From a virus: a stretch of DNA of 36,671 bases. How positions within the stretch are numbered: position 1 is the stretch's first letter; each line of letters begins with the position of its first letter. Of this stretch, positions 19,478 to 36,671 are shown piece after piece. Under the pieces are notes generated by a model. It had not been told where the DNA came from. It made no database searches and was given only the letters and a program-made list of their open reading frames with translations. The translations under genes and the position numbers were made by a program. Where the stretch lies: the IMG/VR virus record IMGVR_UViG_3300038415_000180; one strand, given 5' to 3'.

Positions 19478-19479
19478 GG

Positions 19480-19871: not shown

Positions 19872-19896
19872 ACTCAGTAATACGCGTAAACTATGT
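19867..19896 (-). promoter_or_regulatory. Family promoter TTGAGA -18- (ACGCG)TATTAC.
   Basis: Conserved motif. Confidence 0.45.
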
Positions 19897-20029
19897 CGAT
19901 TCTCAACTACTAATTTGCTACTAATCCAACCATTATTTAGTATTTGGCTGGCCGAACTATCAAGAGCATTAAACGTCTCAGCCCCCGAGAGGTAATTCAT
20001 CGGAGGCTGTAACGCTATGTAGAGCCTGA

Positions 20030-21047: not shown

Positions 21048-21077
21048 AGTAGCCGGGTAGTAGGTAGCACTAAGTAC

Positions 21078-21829: not shown

Positions 21830-21884
21830 GACCCACTCAAGCTTAATCGAGCTTGAGTGCTACAAATCCGGTGTAGATCATTGC

Positions 21885-22082: not shown

Positions 22083-22311
22083 AGAACCGCAACTGTTGGT
22101 AGACAGATAGTAGCTCACCCAGAGCCGCTAGGACCAATGGTTCCGGATGAGCTTCTGCGTTCACCCTCTTGAGCACCCATTCGAGATGCCACCAGGCTTC
22201 GTCCAGGTACAATCCCTCGTTGGGGTCTCCAGGAGCTGCCTCGACTAGAAGGCAGCTCACCATCTCGATGCTAGCTTTGATTGGATCTGGGTCTAATCGG
22301 ATGAGGAACAT
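22039..22311 (-). CDS. Hypothetical protein, about 90 aa. The start was moved to ATG 22311, which is 5 nt downstream of a family promoter.
   Basis: The promoter at 22317-22346 lies inside the extended ORF of the track. Confidence 0.4.
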   Translation of the reverse strand: MFLIRLDPDPIKASIEMVSCLLVEAAPGDPNEGLYLDEAWWHLEWVLKRVNAEAHPEPLVLAALGELLSVYQQLRFSMQTAVASAELARP

Positions 22312-22316
22312 ACCCT

Positions 22317-22346
22317 GTATTACGCGCCAGCTCGCGCGGATCTCAA
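22317..22346 (-). promoter_or_regulatory. Family promoter TTGAGA -18- (GGCGCG)TAATAC.
   Basis: Conserved motif. Confidence 0.45.
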
Positions 22347-22357
22347 CCAAGATTCGA

Positions 22358-23548
22358 TTACTTGAAGTATTTAGGGTCCAATACCCCTGGGTTACGGTCA
22401 AGGATGTCATTGACCGTCTTGACCTTGATGTTCAAGTTGGTCCGTGCTTGAGCCCGAGCTTCCAAACGGTCATTCGACGTACCAGATGCCCAAGTGTCCA
22501 ACCCCTCGATGTGGATCTCGGCTGTCCAGAAACCAAGACTACTGAACTTCTCGGTGAAAATGGTCTCTTGGTTCTCGTCGTGATAGTGAGAGCGGGTGGG
22601 ACTAAGGTGAACCATTGGCTTGCCGAACCAAGTGTCAAATACTGACTTCTTCTCAACTTTGGATTCAGGTACAGGCTCGGGCTCGGGCTCCGGTACAAGC
22701 TCGGGATCGGTCTCAGGCAACGTTGCCGACTCAAGATGCTCGGTAACCTCCTCTGAGTCATCATCCGATTCGACTTCCAATGGTTCGACCACCCCTGTCT
22801 CTGCGCTGACCTCAGAAGGTACGGAAACCGTCTCCACCGCCGCTACAACCACCCCGTCTGATTCTACTGGCGAGACCTTCGGCTTCGAGCGAAGAGCGTA
22901 CATACCCTTTTCTGGGCAGTGAAATAGGTTCTTGTGCGCACTCAGCACATTGCTCACCGAGGATCGGCGCTTTGGGAACCACTCCCGTGCTTCCAACCTC
23001 TTGCAAATATCGTCGAAGCTTATGGTTTCCCTGCCTACGACATAGAGGATGCATTCAAGTAGACTTTTCGGCTTCGTAGTTTCTTCAGGGGTAATCTTCT
23101 TGGCCACAACATTCTCCACGGGGATTAGAATTTCGAGTTCGCTAAGTGCTAGGTCCAGGTTTACCACAGGATGAGTGGAACCCAAAGACTTATTCTCAAT
23201 AATTTCTTGGTCATTCGGGAGGGAGTCGATGTACTTTGACTCTTGTTCGGCCCTGGCGAGTAGGACTTTCGTCTGCTTTATCTCTTGCCGCTCGATTCTG
23301 GCGAGTAGCACTTTCGCTTGGTGCACCTCCTCTTCATGGAGGCGACCGGACTCTTTCATGGCTAGGTCTTTATCCGTGAATAATGACCCCTCGCTTGCCA
23401 CGAACTCGAAGTAGTCTGTTACCGAGCGAACAACAACTGGGTCAGGGGGAACGAAAGCTAGGTCTTGCCCCCCAGTACCTGTCTCTAATATGACAACAGG
23501 TGTGATGCCCAGCGTCCCCGCTATCCAATGGGTGGGTGTGGTTGTCAT
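22358..23548 (-). CDS. Hypothetical protein, 396 aa. It has an N-terminal region, a helical repeat (KVLLAR x2), a winged-helix-like middle, and an acidic Pro/Glu-rich linker (PELVPEPEPEPVPES).
   Basis: Long ORF directly downstream of a family promoter. A 45-bp intragenic tandem duplication lies at 23253-23342. Confidence 0.6.
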   Translation of the reverse strand: MTTTPTHWIAGTLGITPVVILETGTGGQDLAFVPPDPVVVRSVTDYFEFVASEGSLFTDKDLAMKESGRLHEEEVHQAKVLLARIERQEIKQTKVLLARAEQESKYIDSLPNDQEIIENKSLGSTHPVVNLDLALSELEILIPVENVVAKKITPEETTKPKSLLECILYVVGRETISFDDICKRLEAREWFPKRRSSVSNVLSAHKNLFHCPEKGMYALRSKPKVSPVESDGVVVAAVETVSVPSEVSAETGVVEPLEVESDDDSEEVTEHLESATLPETDPELVPEPEPEPVPESKVEKKSVFDTWFGKPMVHLSPTRSHYHDENQETIFTEKFSSLGFWTAEIHIEGLDTWASGTSNDRLEARAQARTNLNIKVKTVNDILDRNPGVLDPKYFK

Positions 23549-23556
23549 TCTACGTT

Positions 23557-23585
23557 TTATTACGCATGACTCGGGCAGAACTCAA
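23557..23585 (-). promoter_or_regulatory. Family promoter TTGAGT -17- (ATGCG)TAATAA, 8 nt before ATG 23548.
   Basis: Conserved motif. Confidence 0.5.
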
Positions 23586-23680
23586 CTAAATTATCAAAAT
23601 AACTTTGGGTTTTGAAATATGCCTAGCGGCCAGTTCTTAGTTTGAACATCCGGTGTACTGATTGGACGAAAGGACGGGCT

Positions 23681-23791
23681 CATGCCTAAGTCAACCACTA
23701 GTACAGCTAAGACGCAAAAAATTGGTACCAAGAAGACTGCGGAAGTGACCAAGGTCACCCCCAAGAAGAAGGTAACCAAGAAAAGCAAGTG
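23681..23791 (+). CDS. Small, highly basic Lys/Thr-rich peptide, 36 aa (MPKSTTSTAKTQKIGTKKTAEVTKVTPKKKVTKKSK).
   Basis: Short ORF with an upstream AAGGA. Its composition resembles a histone-tail or DNA-binding peptide. It is below the track cutoff. Confidence 0.3.
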
Positions 23792-23828
23792 ACCGGGTAG
23801 AGGGCCATCCGCGGTGTAAAGACCAAAG

Positions 23829-24329
23829 ATGGCCCTTCTCGATTTCGTACTAGATAGCTACGAGAGTTACATCCAAAAAGCTTACCATCACTCACAATGT
23901 GAGCCACATGATGCCAGCCGAGAAGAGGTCATCCTGTGGCGTCGAGTGAAGGAGCTAGAAGGGATCCTTCAGAATCTAAGGCCGCCAATTGTCAACGAGA
24001 TGCTGGAGTCTATCCCCAGAGATGTTGATAAGGTGTGGGTGAACATCGAGAGCATGGAGCTTCTACAACGACACGCTCTCGATATCCTACGACTGGAGTC
24101 GCTCCCGCCCACTGAGGGTGTCTACCAAGAGATCTGGGGTTCGATTCAGTACCTTGTCGACTACGACGGCATAGAGGAGCCTCATACAGTATGGCTCGCT
24201 TGCGACCGCAACCTACCCTTTGGAACGGTCAGCACTGAGAGAGCTTCCACTTATCTGACGCCGGTAGCTGCAACGCTTCGATCTCAACCTTGCCATCAGG
24301 TAGCTGTGAAGGATCCAACACAACCTTGA
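23829..24329 (+). CDS. Hypothetical protein, 166 aa.
   Basis: ORF. Confidence 0.45.
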   Translation: MALLDFVLDSYESYIQKAYHHSQCEPHDASREEVILWRRVKELEGILQNLRPPIVNEMLESIPRDVDKVWVNIESMELLQRHALDILRLESLPPTEGVYQEIWGSIQYLVDYDGIEEPHTVWLACDRNLPFGTVSTERASTYLTPVAATLRSQPCHQVAVKDPTQP

Positions 24330-24612
24330 TGTTGCTGTCCTTGAAGCTCTTTAGGAACTCGCTCCCGACACCAATTCGTTTGACCTCATAATCGAAGACC
24401 TGGGCCCGCAACATGAAGAGTCGTAGAGCGTCAATGTCGGTGAAACAGGGTAGGTAGTACTGCCCATGGTGGGATTTGGACGGGATGTAGATCGGAGCTC
24501 CATTCCTCCAAGGTAGAAGGGCTCTGGAGAGATCAACCTCCTCGAACTGATTCCCTCGAACTGATTTAGGTCCTTCGGTCATCTTTTCCAACACACGAGC
24601 CAACGATAGCAC
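24229..24612 (-). CDS. Hypothetical protein. The listed start is a GTG, and the real start may be the internal ATG about 24580.
   Basis: ORF. Confidence 0.35.
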   Translation of the reverse strand: MLSLARVLEKMTEGPKSVRGNQFEEVDLSRALLPWRNGAPIYIPSKSHHGQYYLPCFTDIDALRLFMLRAQVFDYEVKRIGVGSEFLKSFKDSNIKVVLDPSQLPDGKVEIEALQLPASDKWKLSQC

Positions 24613-24617
24613 TAACT

Positions 24618-24911
24618 ATGGACTCAACGCAAATCCTAAAAATATCAAGTAAATACGAAACCATACTTAAGGCTACAGGTGTATACGCCGTAAAATCAGA
24701 TACTTCACTGAACGTAGGACCAGGGAATAGTAAGGCTTTTGAGCATTGCCTTTGGATGTGCTATGAAATCGAGCGCCAGGTGAGGGCCGGAGAGCGGGAT
24801 AAGGCCATGCGCTGGGTGTGCTTTATCCAAGGAGTTCTATGGGTTTCCGGCCTTTTGAGTATTGACTCGATGCGTGATGATAATCGACCCGCGGTCGGAA
24901 GTGCAACCTGA
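24618..24911 (+). CDS. Hypothetical protein, 97 aa.
   Basis: ORF. Confidence 0.4.
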   Translation: MDSTQILKISSKYETILKATGVYAVKSDTSLNVGPGNSKAFEHCLWMCYEIERQVRAGERDKAMRWVCFIQGVLWVSGLLSIDSMRDDNRPAVGSAT

Positions 24912-25065
24912 ACTTATTCCACCCCTAGTTGATGGACAACTTCATTGACATCGGGTGCGGGGTATCAATCGCGTTCGCCGAGTATCAAGGTCAAGTAGTC
25001 GGCCTCCACGAGCGCCACCCCAACAGGAAGGACCCTTCCCAACCCTGTTGCGGCTTCGTTTGGTT

Positions 25066-25116
25066 CGACTTTCCAGACCGGGTACCCGTTGCACGGGTAC
25101 CCGGTCTGGAAAGTCG
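25066..25116. repeat. Perfect 23-bp inverted repeat with a 5-nt loop (CGACTTTCCAGACCGGGTACCCG ttgca CGGGTACCCGGTCTGGAAAGTCG). It contains a nested palindrome CCGGGTACCCGG.
   Basis: Read directly. It lies in a noncoding region of about 300 bp between the convergent genes 24618-24911 and 25208-28495. Confidence 0.7.
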
Positions 25117-25207
25117 AGTGCATGGATCCCCTGACGCTATCCCCATCCATTCTATGTCGCGGGTGCGGCAAACATGGGTATATCCGTCAGGGGAGGTGGG
25201 TCCCGGC

Positions 25208-28200
25208 CTAGTTGTTGACGTCGGCCAAAAACTGACGAGCGTTCTCATACACAAGCTTGGCTGTCTGGATCTCATTGCGGATAGCAATGTTGTTGAGGTG
25301 CAAGTCCACTGAATCAATCAGATCTTGGGGCTCGACCTGAACGAACGGGCGCATGATCTTGTGCATCTCATCCCGTTGCTTCTGGGTGAACTTCGACGGA
25401 TGGAACTTGTTCCCACCTTGGTTGAGCAACTCTAGGACGATGTCAGCAGCCTCCGGCTGAGTGTTCACGAAGTGACTCATCTTGATCCGCCAGACATGGT
25501 CGACGACCTTGCGCATGATGTCCCCAACGGCCCCGTCAAGGCGTGTGGAAGCCTCTGTGAGGACTCCGTTGCCCATTGACTCTGAACAGGGTAGGTAGGC
25601 CAGGAACTGCTTCAGAAGCCTGATACGGTCGTCCTGGCTTAGCTCGCCAACGATGATGACTTTGCTGAACCGACGGATGAGAGGCATCGAGATCCGCTCG
25701 GGATGGTTCGTGGCCCCCCAGAGAGCCAGGTGAGGGTAGCTCGTGATGCCATCCATCAAGACCTGGAACTCAGTGGCGAGGTTGGTCCCACCAAAGGCCG
25801 CATGCCCACGGTCCCCGTTGAGAATCGTATCGATCTCGTCGATGAGGAAAAACACTTGTTTCTTTGACTCCCGCTGAATCTTTAAGCCAGCTTCGAACAG
25901 ACGCTTTGGGTTCTTCTCACTTTCCCCTTTCCAACAAGTAAGGAAATCTGAGGCTTGCGCGAAGATTCCGATGCTCTGTCGATTCGAAGCCACACCTCGA
26001 AGGATCTCTGTTTTGCCCGAGTTATGAGTTACTGTGAAGTCACCCAGTAGATATCGTCCATCACCGTCAAGGGTAAATCCGTAATATCTCTCTTGAGGGA
26101 GTTCTCGTATAGTAAGCCCCGTACGAAGGACGTCCTTGATTTGCCTTCGTTCTCCAGCTTTCTTATGTGGAATACGCACTGGTATCAGACTCACATCTCC
26201 AGAGATCTTCACTCGGTAGTAAGTCCTCAATAACCCCTTGGTGTCTTTCTTTTGAAAAGTGGATTGATACGCAGCGAACCCTAAGCTGCAGGCAACAAAC
26301 CTCACATCATTAGCCAAGTGTTTTGACTTTGATTGAAAGTCAAAACACACATTCGACAGACTACCATCTGTGTCGATGAGTCCAGCTAGTAATTTTAGTC
26401 TATCCTTACGAGAGGCCATCTTGTAACAATTGGGTATGAACTTATTCCTTGTGGATGTCCCACCCAATCCTAAGTCACGTAGGATCAACATGATTGGATT
26501 TGGCTTATGACAGGTACCAGATAGCCAGTATCGAGTTACAGAAGAGGTTGGGTCAGGTGATGGGTTGACATGAAGCCCAAACTTCTTAGCTTGTTTGTAC
26601 ACTTCCCGGACTAACTCTGGGTCGCCAGTGGTGAGTGCTGGACAGGCTCTAATAGATCCGTCCCCAAGAAGTGCTCCTAAAAAATATGGGTCAAGCGGTA
26701 GTCTAGGTTTATGGGTAAACTCAACCCCAACTCGAAACAACTTGAATTCACGCTTCATATAAGCGGACCAGCCTAAGTAATCAGTAACCGCTACATCTCT
26801 AACCTCACCACTCAACTTCTTGTGTCCCATACGAACAAGTGTCAGAACATGACCCTTGTTCACAACCCAAGGTTCTCCTTTGGTTGGAAGGATCTCGACC
26901 ATATCTTCAGACCCACGATGTAGCTCCAGTACCCTACGGGGTTTGCTGTCAGGACCCATCAACAAGTCCCCAACCCTAATCCGCTCCACAGACTTCAAGG
27001 ACCCATCGAACATCAGGATCTTCTGTCCCTTACGATGACATCCCTGTGGCCCGACAAGAAGCACGTTGCTCTTGTCCGCCTTCTTCGATGGGGAGGTGGC
27101 CAGGAACACATCGAACCATTTGGCCCCATCGAGGATGTTGCTCATGAATTCGAGAACTTCCTTGAACCCAGATCCAATGACTTCGGACAGGTCCACCATA
27201 GGCTTGATGCCAGGAATGACTGTCAACTCCCCTGGGGCATCGCCGGTGAACGGGTTACCATTACCGATCTTGCAGACATAGAATGAGTTCTCTTCGAGGT
27301 TGTAGTCCCTCAGCTCTTGCTTGCGGCCGAGAATGTACTTGATGAGCGCTTCGACACTAGAGCGTTCCCTCAGCAACATCGCCACCATCTCAAGGGTCTT
27401 GTTTCTGAACTCCAACTCTTGGCGCTCCTCGATGGTGAGCAGCCCCGTCTTCTCCTTGTAAGTAACACTCTGTGGGTTCAGATCTTCGATAAAGCTCAAG
27501 GATTGTTTGAACTGGGAATCTTGATTCCTGTGTTCCTTTTGGTTAAACTTGGTGATGGTCTTGACCACCTCTGCAAAAGGGTGAGCTAATCTCTGGATCC
27601 GTGAAGACGAGTCCCACAGCCCATTCAGGCCATCAACGAGGAATCTGATGAACTTACTAGGGTCTGAGGTGAAGTCACCGAGCATTCCTGTCTGGAGTGA
27701 CTCGGCGAGGAGTACAGCCTTCCTCATCGTGTAAGCCGAGATCTCATCCGGCTTCTTGCCATCTTGGATCTCTCCATGGGAGTCTACATTCTCGTAAATC
27801 GAGATGGCCACATCCGTCGTGATGGGGTCGAAGTGAATCTTGATTCCCTCGACCGAGTGGCGATGGTTGAGAGCCTTGTAGTACCTGTCGAGGCAACCGG
27901 TGATGTGGCTGCAGATGTTGAGGATCTCCCTCTGACAGGAATTGGCTACCAGGAGATGGTTCGAGAACCTGTTTACAATAGGCCCAAACATCTGGTACTG
28001 AATCGAGAAGGTCTGCGCCTGCTCAAAAGTTCGAGGGTACCGCTCATCAGAAAGTAGTTCTATCTTCTCTGGTCGGAGGCCTCTGACAATCCCCAGCAGT
28101 TGTTGGAACCCGTTGTGCAAGTCACTGATTACTTCCAATACTATTCGAATGAAGCTGTTTCCGGCTGCATGCTTCAAGTCATCCAGCGCATCAGTGTCAG

Positions 28201-28495
28201 ACGTCATGTCCTCGAACGGGTTGCGCCTTCGGGTACTGTGTCTGACCTCCGATAGAATCGACTCAAAAGACTGACTCAAACTCGTGGTCTCGTCTTCTAG
28301 CTGACCGGTCAGGAAGGTGATCCTCTCGATCAACTCCTCGATGTCCTTCGCGAAGAGAGACTCCGCAGCATCGTTGACTACCTGAACCATCTGATAGAAC
28401 ATCATCGGATTCATCTCGACGACGTGGCTTTTACTCAAAGAGCGTTCTAGATCGTGTGAATCGAACATTTGAACGCTTGATACACCGGAACCCAA
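25208..28495 (-). CDS. Classic-clade AAA+ ATPase with a large N-terminal domain of unknown function (about 480 aa). It is interrupted in its P-loop by an intein, and the mature extein is about 755 aa.
   Basis: Once the intein is removed, the Walker A reads LLVGPQG-SGKTE. The Walker B is VFFLIDEID. The sensor-1 and second region of homology reads GATNHPERISMPLIRRFSKVIIV, with the RRF arrangement typical of Vps4, spastin and katanin ATPases. The listed start is a TTG, and an ATG lies at 28468. Confidence 0.85.
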   Translation of the reverse strand: MGSGVSSVQMFDSHDLERSLSKSHVVEMNPMMFYQMVQVVNDAAESLFAKDIEELIERITFLTGQLEDETTSLSQSFESILSEVRHSTRRRNPFEDMTSDTDALDDLKHAAGNSFIRIVLEVISDLHNGFQQLLGIVRGLRPEKIELLSDERYPRTFEQAQTFSIQYQMFGPIVNRFSNHLLVANSCQREILNICSHITGCLDRYYKALNHRHSVEGIKIHFDPITTDVAISIYENVDSHGEIQDGKKPDEISAYTMRKAVLLAESLQTGMLGDFTSDPSKFIRFLVDGLNGLWDSSSRIQRLAHPFAEVVKTITKFNQKEHRNQDSQFKQSLSFIEDLNPQSVTYKEKTGLLTIEERQELEFRNKTLEMVAMLLRERSSVEALIKYILGRKQELRDYNLEENSFYVCKIGNGNPFTGDAPGELTVIPGIKPMVDLSEVIGSGFKEVLEFMSNILDGAKWFDVFLATSPSKKADKSNVLLVGPQGCHRKGQKILMFDGSLKSVERIRVGDLLMGPDSKPRRVLELHRGSEDMVEILPTKGEPWVVNKGHVLTLVRMGHKKLSGEVRDVAVTDYLGWSAYMKREFKLFRVGVEFTHKPRLPLDPYFLGALLGDGSIRACPALTTGDPELVREVYKQAKKFGLHVNPSPDPTSSVTRYWLSGTCHKPNPIMLILRDLGLGGTSTRNKFIPNCYKMASRKDRLKLLAGLIDTDGSLSNVCFDFQSKSKHLANDVRFVACSLGFAAYQSTFQKKDTKGLLRTYYRVKISGDVSLIPVRIPHKKAGERRQIKDVLRTGLTIRELPQERYYGFTLDGDGRYLLGDFTVTHNSGKTEILRGVASNRQSIGIFAQASDFLTCWKGESEKNPKRLFEAGLKIQRESKKQVFFLIDEIDTILNGDRGHAAFGGTNLATEFQVLMDGITSYPHLALWGATNHPERISMPLIRRFSKVIIVGELSQDDRIRLLKQFLAYLPCSESMGNGVLTEASTRLDGAVGDIMRKVVDHVWRIKMSHFVNTQPEAADIVLELLNQGGNKFHPSKFTQKQRDEMHKIMRPFVQVEPQDLIDSVDLHLNNIAIRNEIQTAKLVYENARQFLADVNN
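26021..27040 (-). mobile_element. Intein of 340 aa with a LAGLIDADG homing-endonuclease domain, inserted between G and S of the Walker A motif.
   Basis: The N-terminal splice block is CHRKGQKILMFDG (Cys1). Block B is GHVLTLV. The two LAGLIDADG motifs are FLGALLGDGSI and LLAGLIDTDGSL. The C-terminal block is LGDFTVTHN, followed by Ser+1. Confidence 0.85.
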
Positions 28496-28515
28496 TACTT
28501 ATTTGATAATTCCAG

Positions 28516-28935
28516 ATGATTGAGACCAAACCAATGCCTAAGTCGCGCCGCCCCAGAATGCCTGACGCCCCAGTGGACTTGGATTTCTCTGCGATTGTAG
28601 AGGGGAGTGTCGTTACCCACGAGGACCAAGCGAATACCCACTATGCCATTGTCATAGTGGTCACCCTCGATGGATTTGCTGACATCCTCATGTTCAGCTC
28701 AAAGCAGCTTGGGTACCGATGTCGCGCAGTCACGAAAGAGGAGCTGGCCCTCTCCGGCTTCATTAGCTCGAAGAAGACCTTCCTCTCCCTGAAAAGGAGA
28801 CCCCTCTGGGAACTCAGGCCTCGCGGGCTAGAGTTCCCAAGTCATCGGGTTGAGAAACTCAAGCAGGAGTTCTTGTCAGTCGGGGAACCTATCCTCGACC
28901 TTGTCAACCATAGAGCTAATTGCTTCAACCAATGA
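28516..28935 (+). CDS. Hypothetical protein, 139 aa.
   Basis: ORF that diverges from the AAA gene. Only about 20 nt separate the two listed starts. Confidence 0.45.
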   Translation: MIETKPMPKSRRPRMPDAPVDLDFSAIVEGSVVTHEDQANTHYAIVIVVTLDGFADILMFSSKQLGYRCRAVTKEELALSGFISSKKTFLSLKRRPLWELRPRGLEFPSHRVEKLKQEFLSVGEPILDLVNHRANCFNQ

Positions 28936-29143
28936 CTCACTGGGGTCCCCAATGATCGCCGGCTCCTTGCCAATCAACTCCGCTAGGGCTCGGTAGCACC
29001 CGCTCGGGGGTCCGGACTCACCATTGGGGCGCCGGAGACGGATGGTGTCTATGTTCGGCTTTCGTTCTACCCAGTTGCTGAGATCTGAGAGGGTTGTACT
29101 TCCGGTGACATGCAGTGGCATATTCGTTCTCGTTTCAGTTGGT

Positions 29144-29665
29144 TTAATCTGCGGACTCACCTTCACCCTCTTGCTCTATCCGGGCCAAGTATTGTTCAGC
29201 ATTTTCACCAGGAGCCGCAGCGTGACTCTCCTCGATGCATCGCTTCGCAAACTCGATAGCCTCATCTTTACTGCTGAATGGAACGAACTTGATGGGTTGA
29301 AGCCCATCTCTAGCGTCGTCTGAGACTACGTACCAAAAGGTATTGTCCTCAGTTCCAACCTTGACCGTGACGTCAAGCGCTATGACCTCACCACTGGTCT
29401 CGTCCTCATCAACGTAGACATAGGTCCCAATGGTGCTGAGCTGAGTGATGTCCGCCAGGTCCGGCTTAGGTACCAAGATCGACTCGGGTACGAAGAAGCC
29501 TGTCTGAGGCCCAAACTCTCCATCGATAGGGGTGTCGAGTTCAACCACGTACATGTAGACTGGACACACATACGAGATTCCAGTGACTTCAGCTCGGATC
29601 TCGTCACCATTGATACGGACTTCTACCTCATCATGGAGTTGATTTATTGGGTACTGTTCAGTCAT
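29144..29665 (-). CDS. Hypothetical acidic protein, 173 aa.
   Basis: ORF with an 8-nt overlap with the upstream gene. Confidence 0.5.
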   Translation of the reverse strand: MTEQYPINQLHDEVEVRINGDEIRAEVTGISYVCPVYMYVVELDTPIDGEFGPQTGFFVPESILVPKPDLADITQLSTIGTYVYVDEDETSGEVIALDVTVKVGTEDNTFWYVVSDDARDGLQPIKFVPFSSKDEAIEFAKRCIEESHAAAPGENAEQYLARIEQEGEGESAD

Positions 29666-29930
29666 GTTTCAGTCTTTCCCCCAGGCCTACCCCCTCGGCG
29701 AACTCAGCCGCTTTGATGTAGTCGATGTCTGGGAAGTGGTTATTGTGCAGGGCTACATAGGCAAGGTAACCCATTCGGAGTGAATAATCGGAATGACCAG
29801 TGATTGCGCCGAGTACCTCAATCGAGGCAACCTTCGCCATGTTGTAGCCACAAATGAAGTCATTCTCATTGATTTCTTGTGGTCTCAACGTAGCAGAGGT
29901 ATCAGGTCTGATGGTCTCAACGTTTTTCAT
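29658..29930 (-). CDS. Hypothetical protein, 90 aa.
   Basis: ORF downstream of a family promoter. Confidence 0.5.
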   Translation of the reverse strand: MKNVETIRPDTSATLRPQEINENDFICGYNMAKVASIEVLGAITGHSDYSLRMGYLAYVALHNNHFPDIDYIKAAEFAEGVGLGERLKHD

Positions 29931-29941
29931 CGGTCTCTCAT

Positions 29942-29970
29942 GTATTACGCATGTTAATTCTGATTTTCAA
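29942..29970 (-). promoter_or_regulatory. Family promoter TTGAAA -17- (ATGCG)TAATAC.
   Basis: Conserved motif, 11 nt before ATG 29930. Confidence 0.45.
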
Positions 29971-29991
29971 CCTAAATCTCCGGTCCTATCC

Positions 29992-30228
29992 CTAATTGGT
30001 CCGTCGAGGTGGGAGTAGCTCGGAGCAAACCATGCACTCATCAAACGCTTTGGCGAGTATTAGACGAGATCCCACCTTCAACTCGGTGTACTTTTCGGAG
30101 TCTTCCTTAGTAATAGTGAACCGGAATATGGTACCGTCCACTTCATCAGCTTCACCTCTTTGGGCGCGGCCCCAAAAGTCCTTCACATACTCTGGTTGTC
30201 CTTCAAACATATCGGGTCGGTCGGTCAT
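29992..30228 (-). CDS. Hypothetical protein, 78 aa.
   Basis: ORF downstream of a family promoter, with a leader of about 36 nt. Confidence 0.45.
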   Translation of the reverse strand: MTDRPDMFEGQPEYVKDFWGRAQRGEADEVDGTIFRFTITKEDSEKYTELKVGSRLILAKAFDECMVCSELLPPRRTN

Positions 30229-30264
30229 GTCTCACTCTCTTTGGGGCCAGTAAGCTCTCTTAAT

Positions 30265-30293
30265 CTATTACGTTTCAGGGGCTTAGAACTCAA
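30265..30293 (-). promoter_or_regulatory. Family promoter TTGAGT -17- (AACG)TAATAG.
   Basis: Conserved motif. Confidence 0.4.
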
Positions 30294-30478
30294 CCAAGAT
30301 CAGCGAGTTATAGATCTTAGGACCCTTCCGCAGAAGTAGGACCCCGGGAGTATGACCCAGAACAGCTTGATGGATTCCAGCCACAATCCATGCATCCGGT
30401 TCATGGTAGCCCAAAAGATGATGAGGAACCCAATGAGGAGCATGTAGGCAGCGGCGAGGTCTAGTAGTTTGAATCGGA

Positions 30479-30856
30479 TCAAGGTTTCCAACCCTTCGGA
30501 GGCTTCCAACCGGCGGCGGAGGCTTGCACAGCCCAGTCAGGCCAAGGTATCTCACTCAAGGATGATTTCATCAAAGCCCTGATTTTGGTGAAAGCCTTAG
30601 CAGCCTGGGTTTTACTCTCCCACCAGAAACCGATAGCATCGTGGCCGCGAGTATCCCGGTCACCCTCTTTAATTACCTGGAAACCAGCCCTTTCAGCTGC
30701 CCAGTAATCACGATCCATTTTTGAGGCCTTGTTGTAGTCTGCCGGCGGTTCGCGCCTCTCCTGCCCGAGGAAGGCCCCCATATCATCACCGTCATCTAAC
30801 TCCCATTGGATACGGTAAACGCTACGATCTTCAACAACAACGAGTTTGTCAGCCAT
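30479..30856 (-). CDS. Hypothetical protein, 125 aa.
   Basis: ORF 5 nt downstream of a family promoter. Confidence 0.5.
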   Translation of the reverse strand: MADKLVVVEDRSVYRIQWELDDGDDMGAFLGQERREPPADYNKASKMDRDYWAAERAGFQVIKEGDRDTRGHDAIGFWWESKTQAAKAFTKIRALMKSSLSEIPWPDWAVQASAAGWKPPKGWKP

Positions 30857-30861
30857 ACTTC

Positions 30862-30890
30862 TTATTACGCGCGAGCCGCCCAGATCTCAA
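30862..30890 (-). promoter_or_regulatory. Family promoter TTGAGA -17- (CGCGCG)TAATAA.
   Basis: Conserved motif, 5 nt before ATG 30856. Confidence 0.5.
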
Positions 30891-31004
30891 CTAAGTCACT
30901 CAATCGGCTCACTGATTAGGGTTGGCTTCTAAGTCGGATTCCAAAGCGTCATCCAACCCACCTAGTGATTGACAGGCCGTGGTTAAGTCTGCACCCTGTC
31001 CGCA

Positions 31005-31442
31005 GTGTTCGGGGATCACATAAGCCGTCAGGCCAATCATAATATCCGGATATGGGGATCCATAGTATTATTCACGGTATACCTGTCCTGCATAGCACTA
31101 GTCAAGACCAGTGATTATGCCTGGGTCGGTCCGCCAGTATTCTTATCTTGGATAGGTGGGGTCTCCCTCTATGATCACCAAGAACGTAGAAGACTGCAAC
31201 AACGTCTCCTTGGTAGGGTCTCTAACTTTGGGGTTCCCGCTGGGTTTACAAGTAGGCTATTGGGTGATGACCCCCCTCGACCAGACCCACAGCCTACCCC
31301 GATAGCTTTCAACCCTGAAACGAATATTTGGGCTGTTGTACCCAACCCAGAGGTTAGCAAGGTAGAACGAATCGAAGTCCCCAAGCCAATCCGAGTCTCG
31401 CGCTACGAAAGAATTTCAGACCCGGTCAAGTGGGTCATCTGA
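31005..31442 (+). CDS. Membrane protein, 145 aa with a GTG start, ending ...RVSRYERISDPVKWVI*. This is a longer variant of the shared tag.
   Basis: ORF with N-terminal TM segments (IWGSIVLFTVYLSCIALV and VFLSWIGGVSL). The tag motif carries a 5-aa insertion. Confidence 0.5.
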   Translation: MFGDHISRQANHNIRIWGSIVLFTVYLSCIALVKTSDYAWVGPPVFLSWIGGVSLYDHQERRRLQQRLLGRVSNFGVPAGFTSRLLGDDPPRPDPQPTPIAFNPETNIWAVVPNPEVSKVERIEVPKPIRVSRYERISDPVKWVI

Positions 31443-31449
31443 GTGCTTG

Positions 31450-31911
31450 CTAGAACCTTGAGTTGATCCTAGCAAATTCTGCGTCTTCTTTATCCTTGTC
31501 CGCCTTGAAGAGCAGTTCGACTTGCCTCTTGGGGATCCCCTCAGTGCGCCAGTTTGGATAGGGCTTCTCCGCCTTCTTGTCCCACCAACGGATGCGGTAA
31601 CCTCGGAACCCTGGGACATCCTCAGGAATGGTACAGGCAACAGCTCCCCCGCGCCGACAGATCCCCCACCCATGGTCACCCTTACTGATGACGCGGGTGA
31701 CCGGGGCATACCCGCGGAGCCTACCCCAAGAAACAATGTACAGACGTTCCCCAGCCTCAATCTTGGGCTTGGCCCCACCAATCCAGTAGGCCCACTCCTC
31801 ACCGCTCTCGGAGGTCCCCGCCGGGTCACCCTCCTTGATCCAGTAGGCCCATACGTTCTTAGGTACGGTTACGACGAGGTCCGACATGGCTACACAGTAC
31901 ACCTCGTCCAA
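31450..31911 (-). CDS. Hypothetical protein, 153 aa (W/G/R-rich; possibly a PUA-like fold).
   Basis: ORF directly downstream of the sigma-factor gene. Confidence 0.5.
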   Translation of the reverse strand: MDEVYCVAMSDLVVTVPKNVWAYWIKEGDPAGTSESGEEWAYWIGGAKPKIEAGERLYIVSWGRLRGYAPVTRVISKGDHGWGICRRGGAVACTIPEDVPGFRGYRIRWWDKKAEKPYPNWRTEGIPKRQVELLFKADKDKEDAEFARINSRF

Positions 31912-31919
31912 AAGGAATA

Positions 31920-32504
31920 CTAGGGGTCGAGGCCAGCACTCGATGCCCTCGCCAACTGGTCCAATGCTTTATCCTTGATCTGACACACGCGAGCCTCAGT
32001 GAGACCTAGTATCTTGGCTATCTCACACAGGGAATAGTCCTCAAAGCAGTACTTCGAGAGAATGAATACCTCCTTTGGGGTGAGAAAGCTGAGAGACTCC
32101 AACACCTTTCGGAGTTCAATTCGTGCATGAACTAGCTCATCAAGAGGGCTAGTATCCGGGTCAGATAGGTTGGGATCAAGCAAATCGAACTTGGGCATCA
32201 CGCCACTCATCGTGCGCTTCTTGCGCCTGAGTGGCGTCGAGTTACGAATCTCATCTATGATGTGGCCCTTGATCCTACTACGAGCGTAGTGGCGAAACTC
32301 ATCGCGAGAGCCAGAATACTTGCGACAGGCATCCCATAAGCCGATCAAACCCCACTGATAAAGCTCCTCGTATTGTAGAAAAGGTGTACACTTTTTGGTG
32401 TAGTACCCAGCGATACTTGCCGCCATATTCATGTGGTTTTCGAACAACTCTTGAGTATCTCTAGGGGTGCTTAGTGCGGACACAAGTAGGTCCAACTCCT
32501 CCAC
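31920..32504 (-). CDS. Sigma-70-family RNA polymerase sigma factor, 194 aa, of the compact FliA/sigma-28 or SigF type.
   Basis: Region 2 reads QWGLIGLWDACRKY...FRHYARSRIKGHIIDEIRN (compare FliA GGIGLLNAVERYD...FTTYAVQRIRGAMLDELR). The region 4.2 HTH reads LTPKEVFILSKYCFEDYSLCEIAKILGLTEARVCQIKDKALDQLA. The listed start is a GTG. Confidence 0.8.
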   Translation of the reverse strand: MEELDLLVSALSTPRDTQELFENHMNMAASIAGYYTKKCTPFLQYEELYQWGLIGLWDACRKYSGSRDEFRHYARSRIKGHIIDEIRNSTPLRRKKRTMSGVMPKFDLLDPNLSDPDTSPLDELVHARIELRKVLESLSFLTPKEVFILSKYCFEDYSLCEIAKILGLTEARVCQIKDKALDQLARASSAGLDP

Positions 32505-32616
32505 TTTTAGGTAAAGCGGGTCACCTAGATCAGATAGGATAAGTAGAAACGATTGCCCACATCAGTATAAAACCGTGCATTAGTAACCTTAACAATCCTA
32601 CCTTTCGGTGTAGCAG

Positions 32617-32844
32617 TTGAATATGTCTTCAATCAAAGGTGAGCCTACGTTTGTTGAGGTGAGTTGGGTTGACATCACCGACCAGGATATAGCAAAAGTA
32701 TCAGAGGCATCAGGCCTTTCCCCTGAAAGGATCAAACAGTACTTGGAGAGCGAGGAGCAAGACAATAACGTTTTGCGATACTTCGCGCTAATTAGGGTCT
32801 ATCCGAGGGGTAAACTCTTCCAATCGTACAAGCAACCCGCTTAG
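32617..32844 (+). CDS. Small acidic hypothetical protein, 75 aa, divergent from the sigma-factor gene.
   Basis: ORF. Confidence 0.35.
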   Translation: MNMSSIKGEPTFVEVSWVDITDQDIAKVSEASGLSPERIKQYLESEEQDNNVLRYFALIRVYPRGKLFQSYKQPA

Positions 32845-32869
32845 GATCTGTTTTTGGGGTATTAGTGGC

Positions 32870-33400
32870 ATGGCAAGCAACCATTATCGTCGGGTGTATC
32901 TTGCCGGCCCGGATGTCTTCTTCCCTGATGTGGCCGAGCGATCAGCTAGGTTGAAGGATACCTGCCGTCATTATGGCTTCGAGGGAGTGTTCCCCCTCGA
33001 CTCTGGAGTCAAGATCACAAGCGCTCTTGCGCGCGAGGAGAACGGCTACCTCATCTACGAAGCCAATATCAGTCTCATTCGTTCCTGCCAGGCCATCCTG
33101 GCCAATGTAACCCCCTTTCGAGGCCCGTCGGTTGATGCCGGGACCGCTTTCGAGATTGGTTTCGGTCGCGCTCTCGGTCTCGAAGTTGTCGGGTACACAG
33201 CTATCCGCAACTTGTACAAGGAGCGGGTAACCCCGGATGGTCTGATGGTCGAAGACTTTGACATGGTCGACAACCTCATGATTCACTCTGCTATGTGTGG
33301 GGATATTTTCAGCACCCCACAAGAAGCACTTGACTACTTGGCCATCTTGTTTGACTCTGGCGAGCCCACAGCCCGCGTGAGCAGCATCAGACGAACATGA
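32870..33400 (+). CDS. Nucleoside 2-deoxyribosyltransferase / deoxynucleotide N-glycosidase (Rcl/DNPH1) superfamily protein, 176 aa.
   Basis: VYLAGPDVFFPD and SVDAGTAFEIGFGRALG match the family hallmarks (IYLAGP.F and D.GT.FE.GYA). Confidence 0.65.
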   Translation: MASNHYRRVYLAGPDVFFPDVAERSARLKDTCRHYGFEGVFPLDSGVKITSALAREENGYLIYEANISLIRSCQAILANVTPFRGPSVDAGTAFEIGFGRALGLEVVGYTAIRNLYKERVTPDGLMVEDFDMVDNLMIHSAMCGDIFSTPQEALDYLAILFDSGEPTARVSSIRRT

Positions 33401-33675
33401 GTTCTCGTCGCCTAGCAGTCAAAGTCATCCACGGTCAAGGAACAGAGCCAGAGCTCTTTGAGATCCCACTGAGTGGTCCTATTGGATCAAAGTTCAACCT
33501 GTTCGTGTTCCGCGGCGAGTCTACAATGAGTGAGAAGGAGATTCAAGACTTAGTAGAGATCTCTGGCAGACTGTCAGGTAATCCTTGCACAGCACTCATT
33601 CTGGGGGCAAATGACCAGTTCGAGGTGTATGAAGTCGAGATTCCAACCCGTTACGAACGTGACCCGGTGATCTGA
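33397..33675 (+). CDS. Hypothetical protein, 92 aa, ending ...EIPTRYERDPVI* (the shared tag).
   Basis: ORF with an ATGA overlap with the upstream gene. Confidence 0.55.
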   Translation: MSSRRLAVKVIHGQGTEPELFEIPLSGPIGSKFNLFVFRGESTMSEKEIQDLVEISGRLSGNPCTALILGANDQFEVYEVEIPTRYERDPVI

Positions 33676-34163
33676 TGCCTCGCTTATCCATCCGAATTGC
33701 AATGACGGACGATGAGAATCGTACCTTGGTCAGTCATGCTTGGGCCCCACTGAGTTACGAGGACTTTAACAACCCAGCTTTACTTGACCACTCTGACGGG
33801 TCGCTCGTAAACCAAACCGAGCGAGACTTGCTAGAGAGAATTCGGACTGCAATTGACCGGTCACTCCTAAGGTTTTCACGCGGGGAGCGAAGACGATTCG
33901 AGACAAGAGCGGCTAGACCAGATCTTACCGATATCAGTTTCTCTGAGAACTATGATATTGATGAGCCACGAGACGTACCCCTAGGTATAATCAGTGCTAT
34001 TCAAGCTAGTAGGGCTAATATAGCTGATCCTCAGTATATGCATATACTCACTGAAGCAGAGCGTATGGCCGTTATAGGTAAGGTCATCCCAAAAGAGGAC
34101 GAGCCTCTACTGAAACCAGAACCAAAGCGCCTGAATCGTTACCAGCGTAAGCCAGTCATCTGA
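33675..34163 (+). CDS. Hypothetical protein, 162 aa, ending ...KRLNRYQRKPVI* (the shared tag).
   Basis: ORF with a TGATG overlap with the upstream gene. Confidence 0.55.
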   Translation: MPRLSIRIAMTDDENRTLVSHAWAPLSYEDFNNPALLDHSDGSLVNQTERDLLERIRTAIDRSLLRFSRGERRRFETRAARPDLTDISFSENYDIDEPRDVPLGIISAIQASRANIADPQYMHILTEAERMAVIGKVIPKEDEPLLKPEPKRLNRYQRKPVI

Positions 34164-34179
34164 TGGTGTAACCGATTGG

Positions 34180-34821
34180 ATGCGCCAACGTTATGGAGAC
34201 TGGGTTCAGACTTTGACTGGGAATAGGTTCTATGTCCTGGACCCGGAACCCGAAGACATTAGAATCGAGGACATATCGGGCTCATTGGGGAAGATTTGCC
34301 GCTTCAATGGCCACCCGCGCGTCCCCTATTACGTGGGGCAACATTGTACTCTCGGCTCGTATGTCGTGGAGGAGCAAACCAAAAACCTGATCTTGGCCCT
34401 TGCCTTTCACCTCCATGACTCTGGTGAATCCTATCTTGGAGATATGACGCGTCCCCTGAAAGGAATGCCCGAACTCGAAGCTTACCGACTGGCTGAAAGT
34501 AAGCTGAGTCGGACCATCGAAAAAAGGTTTAGGCTCCCAGAGGGCATACTCGAAGACAAGGTCATCAAGGAAGTGGATAACCGGATGCTTTTCACGGAGA
34601 AGAGGGATCTGCTCGTGGCTCTTCAATGGGGGCATTCCGTTCAACCGTATGACTTCAAGATCAAGCCTTGGGGGTGGAGAAAGACCCAACGTAAGTATCT
34701 GGAACGATACCACGAGCTGTGCTTGAGACTCGATGGGTACCCGAAGATCGCTACTCAAGCTCTTCAACTCACTCGGTTACTACCCATCATAGGTACGGCT
34801 TTCTCGACAAGAGAGCAGTGA
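34180..34821 (+). CDS. HD-domain phosphohydrolase, YfbR-like 5'-deoxynucleotidase family, 213 aa.
   Basis: H...(GQHC) and HLHDSGESYLGDMTRP match the HD motifs of YfbR-type enzymes (LLHD.AEA.TGD.P.P). Confidence 0.65.
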   Translation: MRQRYGDWVQTLTGNRFYVLDPEPEDIRIEDISGSLGKICRFNGHPRVPYYVGQHCTLGSYVVEEQTKNLILALAFHLHDSGESYLGDMTRPLKGMPELEAYRLAESKLSRTIEKRFRLPEGILEDKVIKEVDNRMLFTEKRDLLVALQWGHSVQPYDFKIKPWGWRKTQRKYLERYHELCLRLDGYPKIATQALQLTRLLPIIGTAFSTREQ

Positions 34822-35496
34822 GTGACCCGGACTCCAACGTATGTCTACTACCACTTAGCCCAAATCGGGAATTGGGTTGAAGTGGTGCACGACCAGGTAA
34901 AGTCGCTCCAGGATTCTGGGTTATATGGATTCGCTGACAAGATATTCTTCGGAACACTAGGTGAAAACCGAGTATCGCTCCCTGACAAGTTCGAGATGCT
35001 CTTTCACAACCCCGACATCCGGCTGTACGAGATTCCTACCCTGAATGCCCTGAGAGAGCATGCGTTGAAAGAAGACTTCAATGTCCTGTACATGCACGCC
35101 AAGGGTGTGGCCTTCGAAGAAAAGGGTAACACTATCGAGATAGTGACCTATTGGCGTAAATATCTGGAGTACTTCTGTATAGGGAAGTGGGCCGAATGCT
35201 TGCAGGCTCTAGCGAACTTCGATGCCGCAGGGTGCGAGTTTTATGGGTCTGACGAAGTTGTCGACCCACATTTCAGTGGTAACTTTTGGTGGGCTAGGTC
35301 TAGTTACCTGAGAACCCTACCTAGGGTGGAAGACATCATAGTCTCAGAGGAACACTCTTTTCCCCCACGAATGAAAGCTGAGTTCTGGGTGGGTAGCAAC
35401 CATCAGATCCGAGTCAAGGAGCTGTTTCATCACGGTCTTGATGCTTACCGTTTTGAGATCAGACCCGAGATTTACACAGTTTGGAGAAGCAAATGA
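34822..35496 (+). CDS. Hypothetical protein, 224 aa.
   Basis: ORF that starts 1 nt after the stop of the upstream gene. Confidence 0.55.
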   Translation: MTRTPTYVYYHLAQIGNWVEVVHDQVKSLQDSGLYGFADKIFFGTLGENRVSLPDKFEMLFHNPDIRLYEIPTLNALREHALKEDFNVLYMHAKGVAFEEKGNTIEIVTYWRKYLEYFCIGKWAECLQALANFDAAGCEFYGSDEVVDPHFSGNFWWARSSYLRTLPRVEDIIVSEEHSFPPRMKAEFWVGSNHQIRVKELFHHGLDAYRFEIRPEIYTVWRSK

Positions 35497-35729
35497 AGAT
35501 CTCATTCTATGTTGCGTCAGAGCCTCTCATTACGCGTACGAGGGAGGTGATAGTCGTCCCTCGTGTCGGGGAGTATGTCACTTGGCATAAGGACACGGAG
35601 TCACTCAACTTCAGAATCCTGAAGGTGATCCATGTCATGGAAGATCGTGAAGACTACAAAGTCAAAGGACAGCCGCGCGAGTCCGTCTGTCTGGTTGTCG
35701 AAAAGGTGGACCGAAGAGAATTCCAGTAA
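35481..35729 (+). CDS. Hypothetical protein, 82 aa.
   Basis: ORF that overlaps the upstream gene by 16 nt. Confidence 0.45.
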   Translation: MEKQMKISFYVASEPLITRTREVIVVPRVGEYVTWHKDTESLNFRILKVIHVMEDREDYKVKGQPRESVCLVVEKVDRREFQ

Positions 35730-35734
35730 AGGTC

Positions 35735-36064
35735 CTAGCCCCCAACTCTGCCCAACCGACCAACTCTCGATGTCCTACCCAGAGCCACATTGATGAGATC
35801 AAGAAGCGTGTCGATGTGGAACGGTTTATAAAGAAAGTAGGGGAACCCCTCTACCTCTGGCCACCCGGAAATCACGATAAACCGGTCGCGCATATCCGGA
35901 TACTGGCCCGATATCCACTTGTACAGATCCTCGGCAGATTGAAGCCCCAGCTTCAGATCAGACACGACAAGGTCGATTAACTCCGTGGTGCTTAGTGAGG
36001 ACGACAACCTGAACCCACCTGTGGGGGACGCTGTCTTGAAGATGTGGAGAGAACTTCGGGACAC
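35735..36064 (-). CDS. Hypothetical protein, 109 aa.
   Basis: ORF that converges with the preceding + gene. Confidence 0.35.
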   Translation of the reverse strand: MSRSSLHIFKTASPTGGFRLSSSLSTTELIDLVVSDLKLGLQSAEDLYKWISGQYPDMRDRFIVISGWPEVEGFPYFLYKPFHIDTLLDLINVALGRTSRVGRLGRVGG

Positions 36065-36114
36065 CCCAGAAGAGACGCTGTCAGATAACTACCAGACACT
36101 AAGAGCCCGTAGTC

Positions 36115-36671
36115 ATGCTAAGGATTGAAAATGTAAGCCCAGTCCCACTATCGGGACAGTACTGGGCTATGCTCAACCCACTGAGTCTGCTCAAGATACG
36201 CTACGGATCGTTTGGTAGTTACGGGGATGAACTCTACACCATCATTCGTTGGGGGACTGGTGGGGCGGAGGAGAGTGACCTGACTATCATGTGTCCTTTG
36301 AATGACAACTTCAGGTTGCTTAGGTGGGCCTATCCTTACACTGAATATCTGATTGCTAGGGACCTTGATGTTGACGAGTTCCGGGCTCGAACAGGGGATG
36401 TGTTCGAAGCTACCAATGGGATGCTTGTGTTCGCTGTACTAGAGACAGGAGGGGTCACTCTGTACAGCGACGAGAAGATGCCTGAGGCATCAGAGTTGAT
36501 TACCTCCGTGGTTCAACGTGGACCCGGACCGCCCATAGAAGCCCCAGTGAAGTCTCGCTACGAGAGGATAATCGATGAAGCTAAAACCAATTTTTCGATG
36601 GTACGACCTGTGGGTGGGGTTCTTTTACGAGCGAAAGTCAAAGACCCTCTACTTCTTCCCCCTACCAATGT
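36115..36671 (+). CDS. Hypothetical protein (5' partial, runs off the window end). It contains an internal tag-like KSRYERIID segment.
   Basis: An open frame runs from ATG 36115 to the window edge. An in-frame TAA at 36100 rules out an earlier start. Confidence 0.5.
   Translation, partial: MLRIENVSPVPLSGQYWAMLNPLSLLKIRYGSFGSYGDELYTIIRWGTGGAEESDLTIMCPLNDNFRLLRWAYPYTEYLIARDLDVDEFRARTGDVFEATNGMLVFAVLETGGVTLYSDEKMPEASELITSVVQRGPGPPIEAPVKSRYERIIDEAKTNFSMVRPVGGVLLRAKVKDPLLLPPTN

Follow-up and report, generated by a model that had tools for sequence, protein, structure and literature searches.

A small two-domain FliA-like sigma factor of a huge uncultivated phage and its candidate promoters

The stretch of viral DNA analysed here (the window; 36,671 nucleotides) encodes a genuine phage sigma factor, FliA-like and unusually small, which we call sigma1. 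The window also contains seven copies of a bipartite promoter motif (class B) that sigma1 might plausibly read, a pairing that we place somewhat short of an even chance. Phage-encoded sigma factors are already known; what is distinctive here is the unusual domain build of the protein and an unusually well-defined promoter set that extends across the clade. The presence of several sigma factors in one phage genome is well known in jumbo phages without their own polymerase, and sigma factors occur in group 2 jumbo phages (PMC7824862). They have also been reported in huge phages, among which those with possible rpS1 genes seldom show recognisable Shine-Dalgarno sequences (PMC7162821). Almost all knowledge of huge phages comes from metagenomes, and how they programme gene expression is unexplored. 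The present clade has two sigma proteins and three sharply defined types of promoter, all kept in several genera. If sigma1 does read class B, the two would constitute an orthogonal sigma/promoter pair with a specificity of approximately 25 bits and provide a first regulatory map of the clade; if it does not, sigma1 would be an ordinary phage-encoded alternative sigma factor. The predicted leaderless, Shine-Dalgarno-free organisation bears on phage takeover of translation as well as of transcription.

A two-domain, FliA/WhiG-like sigma factor

The gene for sigma1 is located as follows.

31920..32504, minus strand: sigma1 gene, 194 aa, GTG start; FliA/WhiG-like, two-domain

The first-pass annotation of the window had called this gene a sigma-70-family protein with regions 2 and 4, and profile searches bear this out. 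Both regions exceed their curated Pfam cut-offs (Sigma70_r2, PF04542, residues 20-88, 38.7 bits against 24; Sigma70_r4, PF04545, residues 141-184, 40 bits against 24.1), as does the whole protein with the NCBIfam sigma-70 superfamily model TIGR02937 (81.5 bits against 42.9), which places sigma1 in the sigma-70 family. PHROG 351 ('RNA polymerase sigma factor') also matches it at 1.6e-26. The best specific family is FliA_WhiG (TIGR02479) at 95.5 bits, a score below the cut-off of 189.6 and therefore outside that family as formally defined. The SigB/SigF/SigG model (TIGR02980) gives 43.8 bits against a cut-off of 234, likewise outside. Its closest solved relatives by sequence are WhiG (7lq4) and FliA (9wsm, 1rp3, 6pmi), and the top Foldseek neighbours of its predicted structure are a model of B. 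subtilis SigD, WhiG and sigma-28. On the strength of these scores and relatives, the earlier label of 'sigma-28/SigF-like' is right in its first half and wrong in its second, and we propose that sigma1 descends from the FliA/WhiG branch. The lineage appears to be rare. Only 7 of 1.84 billion cluster representatives match sigma1 at E <= 1e-30, and past about 12 short relatives that align in a single stretch, the matches are ordinary FliA-like proteins of ~240 aa that align in two.

Region 3, which had been described as reduced, is in fact absent. Residues 15-90 and 118-184 of sigma1 align by HMMER to residues 22-98 and 177-242 of FliA, such that 27 residues replace the ~78 (residues 99-176) that form the sigma-3 domain of FliA, and Pfam detects no region 3 in sigma1. 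In an AlphaFold2 model built from an 11-sequence alignment (mean pLDDT 75), the sigma-2 (15-88) and sigma-4 (120-187) domains are confidently predicted and helical (pLDDT 82-93), and the intervening linker (89-119) is disordered (pLDDT < 50). Sigma1 is thus a two-domain sigma factor, with a build like that of group 4 and a sequence like that of group 3. It resembles ECF (group 4) factors in its sigma-2 - linker - sigma-4 arrangement, its length and its passing of TIGR02937, but its specific similarity is to FliA/WhiG and not to ECF subfamilies. FliA, in contrast, has ~240 aa including sigma-3, and the 194-aa sigma1 falls far below the cut-off for the FliA family.

The residues with which FliA-type factors contact their promoters are well preserved. 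Comparison with FliA and WhiG chains in the PDB using HMMER shows that sigma1 retains equivalents of Y76, R80, D87, R90, R97 and Q228 (P. aeruginosa numbering; the alignment around R97 is ungapped and the equivalence is sequence-based). The promoter-contact residues among these (Y76, R80, D87, R97 and Q228) are invariant or nearly so in the sigma1 family alignment. The group 3 factors FliA/sigma-28 (E. coli, P. aeruginosa, Aquifex), Streptomyces WhiG and B. subtilis SigD share with sigma1 the first five of these equivalents and the helix pattern TE(A/S)RV(C/S)Q, which in the sigma1 family takes the form (S/T)E(A/P)(R/Y/F)(V/I)(C/S/A)Q(I/V/L)K and is kept down to 37-42% overall identity. The residues by which sigma-70 reads TTGACA (R584, E585 and R588) are missing from sigma1, with an invariant Glu at the R584 position.

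Metagenomic contigs of up to 442,082, 435,302 and 443,068 bp carry homologues of sigma1 (52-99% identity), and the local gene order is kept in these relatives; it takes in the 73-aa divergent ORF, sigma1, the 145-aa gene p145, an operon for nucleoside 2-deoxyribosyltransferase and dNMP phosphatase, a response-regulator gene, a gene for a CCA-adding enzyme and an AAA ATPase gene with or without an intein. Small unannotatable genes form the majority, and inteins and homing endonucleases are present. We interpret the window as part of the genome of a huge uncultivated phage (~440 kb). Given a true sigma factor on a phage-like element of this size, redirection of host core RNA polymerase, as suggested in the first-pass annotation, would be its natural function. 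Searches with the window and with sigma1 against the 50,697 phage records of INPHARED (tblastn, megablast) returned no match.

Class B: a bipartite motif at a fixed distance from start codons

Class B has the form GTTGAGA-N14-GCGTAATA, followed after 6 nt by ATG, and occurs at seven places in the window.

30863..30890, minus strand: class B (TTGAGA...GCGTAATA), 6 nt, then ATG of a 125-aa gene
30266..30293, minus strand: class B variant (ACGTAATA), leader of ~37 nt
29943..29970, minus strand: class B (TTGAAA...TGCGTAATA), precedes a 90-aa gene
23558..23585, minus strand: class B, precedes a 396-aa gene; conserved in relatives L001, L007 and L008
22318..22346, minus strand: class B, 6 nt, then ATG of a 90-aa gene
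19878..19906, minus strand: class B (GCGTATTA), 6 nt, then ATG of a 90-aa gene
5968..5995, plus strand: class B, 6 nt, then ATG of a 118-aa gene

The six copies on the minus strand all fall in the stretch from 19.8 to 30.9 kb, which lies downstream of sigma1 in the direction of its transcription. That the motif is real, as the first-pass annotation had held of its recurring promoter, is clear from several comparisons. A relaxed bipartite pattern matches the window 5 times where 0.02 matches are expected, and the 10-mer CGCGTAATAC, with at most one mismatch, occurs 5 times against an expectation of 0.64. When the window and its relatives were searched with the -10-like half alone, GTTGAG was found at a fixed distance upstream of 29 of the 30 copies of GCGTAATA. 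Relatives have copies at orthologous positions, and only the sequence of the spacers drifts. The consensus from 38 non-redundant family sites is t.GTTGAGat - N - cTCg.GC GTAATA, with a spacer between TTGAG and GTA of 17 nt (n = 27 sites) or 18 nt (n = 10); in other lineages the same two lengths account for 31 and 11 sites, respectively. In 42 of 58 cases an ATG that opens an ORF lies exactly 6 nt past GTAATA, and the ORFs behind class B are mostly of 55-180 aa and without known function. A few sites have no ORF behind them (L134 13013 and 12467, L051 5183 and L135 10920, all on the minus strand), and it is possible that these specify small non-coding RNAs.

A motif scan of IMG/VR together with a search based on the sigma alignment also located class B in the distant lineages L134, L135, L173, L174 and L175, and a genome of 512,571 bp carries the variant tttGGTGAGAT ... 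CCTCaaaC GTA(A/G)TAC, with GGTGAGAT as its -35 box. Class B is thus an old promoter type that has been kept across the genera of a clade of phages of 440-510 kb.

Shine-Dalgarno sequences are almost absent from the window as a whole and none stands ahead of a class B gene. The start codons of promoter-proximal genes keep a constant spacing from the -10-like element, either 6 or 9-10 nt. From this geometry we infer that the transcripts of such genes, those of class B among them, are leaderless.

The architecture of class B closely follows that of sigma-28 promoters. In the open complex formed by P. aeruginosa sigma-28 the promoter reads (-36)TCTAAAG(-30) and (-15)GCCGATAA(-8); R97 reads both G:C pairs at -15/-14, A-11 is flipped, the base at -7 is neither conserved nor flipped, R80 contacts G-12, and Q228 of region 4.2 reads position -36 (PMC12784957). 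Placed in this register, class B becomes (-36)GTTGAGA(-30)-N14-(-15)GCGTAATA(-8), and the two agree in spacing, in the GC at -15/-14, in A at -11 and at -8, and in a variable -7, but differ at -12, where sigma-28 promoters have the G contacted by R80 and class B has T. The boxes themselves also differ (TAAAG and a CGATAA core for FliA as against GTTGAGA and GTAATA for class B), as do the genes concerned: FliA serves flagellar targets, whereas sigma1 is phage-borne and its candidate targets are not flagellar genes. The canonical FliA consensus can be set aside as a promoter of the window, which contains no full site of the form TAAA-N15-GCCGATAA and no excess of GCCGATAA with at most one mismatch (18 against 17.75 expected). 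Canonical sigma-70 promoters are likewise not enriched in the part from 18000 to 36671 (11 against 14.6 expected), and class B itself fails the test for a canonical sigma-70 -10 hexamer because it lacks T at -7.

Class C and the TAWTCC box

Class B is not the only phage-specific start signal. A second motif, class C, consists of (y)GGTGTA followed after 9-10 nt by ATG, has no -35 box and is commoner than class B. In the window GGTGTA is 2.5-fold enriched (33 occurrences against 13.5 +/- 3.7 expected) and is one of the hexamers that are most overrepresented ahead of ORFs; at 33 of 48 family sites an ATG follows it after 9-10 nt, again with no conserved -35 box. Class C sites are conserved at orthologous positions in relatives. 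In the window they precede the small divergent ORF and the genes for p145, the AAA ATPase and the dNMP phosphatase, and a GGGGTA variant precedes the deoxyribosyltransferase gene. A further element, the TAWTCC box, is located 9-16 nt upstream of the GTA core of some of these signals.

4224-34170: class C, 14 sites in the window, for example 32607-32612 (plus strand), 31898-31903 (minus strand), 28481-28486 (minus strand) and 34165-34170 (plus strand)
31914-31919, minus strand: TAWTCC box
32594-32598, plus strand: TAWTCC box
L135 8368, L173 9811, L174 592, L175 9973: TAWTCC box in other lineages

The TAWTCC box precedes sigma2, a paralogue of sigma1 described below, in every lineage that was examined, as well as the two window genes that flank sigma1 (p145 and the small ORF). 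The apparent enrichment of 'TACTTA' as a third promoter class proved to be mostly one orthologous site counted in several relatives, and it was rejected.

GGTGTA is found in the 16-40-nt gaps inside co-directional gene arrays and is missing where a gene start overlaps the preceding stop codon. In three relatives, divergent gaps of 17 nt contain facing pairs of the motif (L001 671-685, L005 2751-2765 and L007 2719-2733), each copy 9-12 nt ahead of its own ATG. The array gaps, the face-to-face pairs and the absence at overlapping starts together argue that GGTGTA is promoter-like and not ribosome-binding. A Shine-Dalgarno role was rejected on account of the facing pairs and the overlapping starts, and also because base pairing with the 16S 3' tail is limited to GGUG, 11-12 nt from the ATG. 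Aligned on its A, class C reads G-16 G-15 T-14 G-13 T-12 A-11, and so the triplet G-13 T-12 A-11 is common to classes B and C, at the same distance from the ATG.

A second sigma factor in the same genomes

The paralogue, sigma2, which came to light at the distant sigma loci, has 216-290 aa and carries a conserved N-terminal HTH extension.

L177 6001-6801: sigma2, ~266 aa, on contig Ga0265338_10000010 (443,068 bp); also in L133, L134, L135 and L173-L175

Its region 2.4 (GQIWDEIR) is nearly identical to that of sigma1 and has the same Arg and Asp contact residues; Pfam detects region 4 in sigma1 but not in sigma2. At the position of sigma-70 R584, sigma2 has Q, L, E, V, T or K even among proteins less divergent than those of the sigma1 comparison, and the GTTGAG box is kept in those same lineages. 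Both paralogues are present in the 512-kb genome. On the 443,068-bp contig, which belongs to the family of the window, sigma1 and its usual neighbours occupy 27.6-33.8 kb and the sigma2 region occupies 128.8-141.6 kb, a separation of ~100 kb. Class B sites are denser near sigma2 (8 sites in 12.8 kb) than near sigma1 (7 sites in 36.7 kb). The upstream signal of sigma2 is TATTCC-N10-16-(G)GTA in all lineages.

Two further leads were not sustained. The '584' residue of sigma2 does not covary with the -35 variant, since V and E both occur with GTTGAG and GTGAG is confined to the 512-kb genome. In the 512-kb lineage, a sigma-70-like extended -10 promoter that precedes sigma1 falls within the 3' end of the neighbouring ORF upstream, where its conservation is inseparable from coding constraint. 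A variant of the 442-kb phage locus (L003 3918-4253, minus strand) encodes a 111-aa protein that consists of region 4 only and adjoins an HNH endonuclease gene.

The neighbourhood of sigma1

The features that flank the sigma1 gene are listed here.

32623..32844, plus strand: small divergent ORF, 73 aa, likely ATG start at 32623; close family only
32594..32612, plus strand: AATCC box, 8 nt, GGTGTA (32607-32612), then 10 nt to the ATG of the small ORF; class C, TAWTCC-box subclass
32537..32549, minus strand: invariant 13-mer TTTCTACTTATCC, ~32 nt upstream of the sigma1 start
31898..31919, minus strand: TATTCC (31914-31919), N10, GGTGTA (31898-31903), then 10 nt to the p145 ATG
31450..31887, minus strand: p145, 145 aa, ATG at 31887, 32 nt past the sigma1 stop
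31329..31349, minus strand: terminator-like hairpin, ~100 nt past the p145 stop

No signal of class B, class C or the TAWTCC-box type lies in the gap upstream of sigma1, nor was an AAC/CGT-type promoter, the kind by which ECF factors are autoregulated, noticed there. Its only strongly conserved block is the 13-mer TTTCTACTTATCC, kept down to 53% sigma identity, which is possibly a promoter of another class or an operator.

The small divergent ORF, placed at 32617-32844 by the first-pass annotation, does exist, with a likely ATG start at 32623. The suggestion that its product could be an anti-sigma factor or a regulator is neither supported nor contradicted; by sequence and by fold it is unlike any known anti-sigma family. 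Its model is a three-helix bundle (pLDDT 73.5) for which the fold search returned nothing significant (best PDB match E = 0.87); the weak resemblances are to LacI-type headpieces, with AsiA at a probability of 0.03 only. Neither this ORF nor p145 gives a Pfam match even at E <= 1, and p145 has no PHROG or PDB sequence match. ECF factors have co-transcribed anti-sigma factors, whereas p145, downstream of sigma1, has no anti-sigma domain, and no FlgM- or RsiG-like partner was detected in the 36.7-kb window searched, out of ~440 kb. Nor are these two genes deeply syntenic with the sigma gene, as both are missing near the distant sigma loci.

The gene downstream of sigma1 had been thought to be co-transcribed with it. 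This is possible but not required, because the 32-nt gap after the sigma1 stop is filled by p145's own start signal (TATTCC...GGTGTA). The hairpin at 31329..31349 is a possible end of a sigma1-p145 unit; terminator-like sites show no enrichment over shuffled sequence. A gene-poor stretch of ~560 nt (30891-31449) separates p145 from the class B promoter that comes next, and its content varies among relatives.

Which factor reads class B?

A phage factor of the sigma type is the most likely reader of class B, given the sigma-28 register, the retained contact residues, the failure of the sigma-70 test, the absence of FliA sites and the spacer of two lengths. Such a spacer, with a -35 box on one side and a -10 box on the other, is consistent with a factor whose two domains are joined flexibly. 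The first-pass annotation had put sigma1 forward as a candidate reader, with this promoter class as its obvious candidate target, and promoter geometry and contact residues agree with this, but with sigma2 in the same genomes it is not the sole candidate. Several observations favour sigma1: its recognition helix is conserved where position 584 of sigma2 varies, Pfam finds region 4 in sigma1 and not in sigma2, and the sigma1 gene is without a class B or class C signal, the lack of a class B promoter being expected if sigma1 acts upstream of class B. The pairing is weakened by the fact that sigma2 shares region 2.4 and the contact residues and sits among denser class B sites, by the loss of R584, E585 and R588 from sigma1 even though the class B box resembles TTGACA, and by R80, which contacts G-12 in sigma-28 where class B has T. 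Furthermore, class B genes look like early genes, being numerous short ORFs that each have a promoter to themselves, and the earliest class cannot need a factor that has to be made first.

With sigma1 as the reader of class B, we infer the following scheme for which sigma factor serves which promoter class, where transcripts begin and how the cascade is ordered. Sigma1 would bind host core RNA polymerase and direct it to class B promoters, its region 4.2 helix reading the -35 box and its FliA-like region 2.3/2.4 residues reading the GC dinucleotide and a flipped A-11. Transcripts would begin with, or immediately beside, the ATG that lies 6 nt downstream; they would have no leaders and would encode mostly small proteins. 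Sigma2 would serve the GGTGTA class, which has no -35 box, and the TAWTCC-box promoters, including the one ahead of its own gene, and the small ORF and p145 would be expressed with sigma2 and not with sigma1. A fuller version holds that two sigma-3-less, FliA-derived paralogues with a shared G-13 T-12 A-11 core run the programme of these 440-510-kb phages and differ in their upstream readers, region 4 of sigma1 reading GTTGAGA and the HTH of sigma2 reading TAWTCC or nothing; that the mRNAs of nearly all promoter-proximal genes are leaderless and free of Shine-Dalgarno sequences; and that the small ORF, expressed from a sigma2-type promoter, shuts sigma1 off. Taken as a whole, this joint reading is unlikely.

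The converse arrangement, in which sigma2 reads class B and sigma1 reads either the TAWTCC-box promoters, and would thereby activate sigma2, p145 and the small ORF, or the GGTGTA class, is in our judgement rather doubtful, though it has the most to recommend it among the alternatives. The dense class B clusters around sigma2 would be explained, the -10-reading residues are common to both proteins just as G-13 T-12 A-11 and the distance to the ATG are common to both promoter classes, and the TAWTCC box at sigma2 in all lineages and at both genes flanking sigma1 would fit a cascade from sigma1 to sigma2. Against this, the region 4.2 helix of sigma2 varies at base-contacting positions in the very lineages in which GTTGAG is invariant, Pfam finds no region 4 in sigma2, and the TAWTCC box could instead be read by the conserved HTH at the N terminus of sigma2.

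Readers other than the two paralogues seem less probable still. It is quite improbable that the host primary sigma holoenzyme reads class B as early promoters and leaves only later classes to the phage sigma factors. TTGAGA does match TTGACA at five of six positions and stands 17 bp from TAATAC, class B genes are small and numerous like the early genes of large phages, and a canonical TTGACA-N16-TATACT promoter is present in the window at the same 5-nt distance from its ATG. Class B, however, has no T at -7, carries an invariant GCG in place of the TGn of an extended -10 and has an information content far above that of host promoters, and the GTGAGA of the 512-kb relative, in which the TTG expected of a host-type -35 box is lost, favours a phage factor over a host sigma. 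We regard it as very improbable that a phage RNA polymerase or another non-sigma factor reads class B, class C or both, in which event sigma1 would have few targets or would be directed at host genes, perhaps by mimicking FliA or serving as a decoy for FlgM. Only ~100 kb of a genome of ~440 kb is covered, other groups of jumbo phage encode their own polymerases (PMC7824862), and the GGTGTA class has no -35 box; roughly a quarter of each genome has been seen, and further sigma factors or a phage RNA polymerase could be encoded elsewhere. Yet the polymorphic spacer of class B fits a two-domain sigma factor and not a polymerase with a single contact, among the jumbo phages compared in PMC7824862 the groups that encode sigma factors are without an RNA polymerase of their own, and FliA-type sites are absent from the window.

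SPO1 gp28 and gp33/34, T4 gp55/gp33 and phiEco32 gp36 are phage-encoded sigma cascades. Like them, sigma1 would be a phage sigma factor that redirects host core polymerase to phage-specific promoters of high information content, in a genome with more than one phage sigma factor or promoter class. Unlike them, the present phages have a leaderless promoter geometry, no detectable homology to any phage in INPHARED, and two sigma factors that are paralogues with a common -10-reading region.

Other features of the window

Scans of the window for tRNA genes and Rfam families found none. An IS1595/ISXO2-like transposase gene (15875-16558, minus strand) has a canonical TTGACA-N16-TATACT promoter 5 nt ahead of its ATG. 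Many MAGs, proteobacterial and other, contain relatives of the transposase (66-77% identity), and as these relatives extend across Proteobacteria, Nitrospirales, Verrucomicrobia and others, the gene was rejected as a marker of the host. The AAA ATPase gene (25208-28495, minus strand; 1095 aa) is interrupted by an intein with Hint and LAGLIDADG domains, which is lacking from the 750-aa orthologues of L007 and the 435-kb contig. An 878-aa protein (1457-4093, plus strand) contains a shoulder domain of the major vault protein (PF11978, 3e-9). Finally, the operon that adjoins sigma1 (32870-34821, plus strand) encodes a nucleoside 2-deoxyribosyltransferase (PF05014, 9e-31) and a dNMP phosphatase (phrog_318, 3.6e-49), and may be a nucleotide-pool or DNA-modification module.
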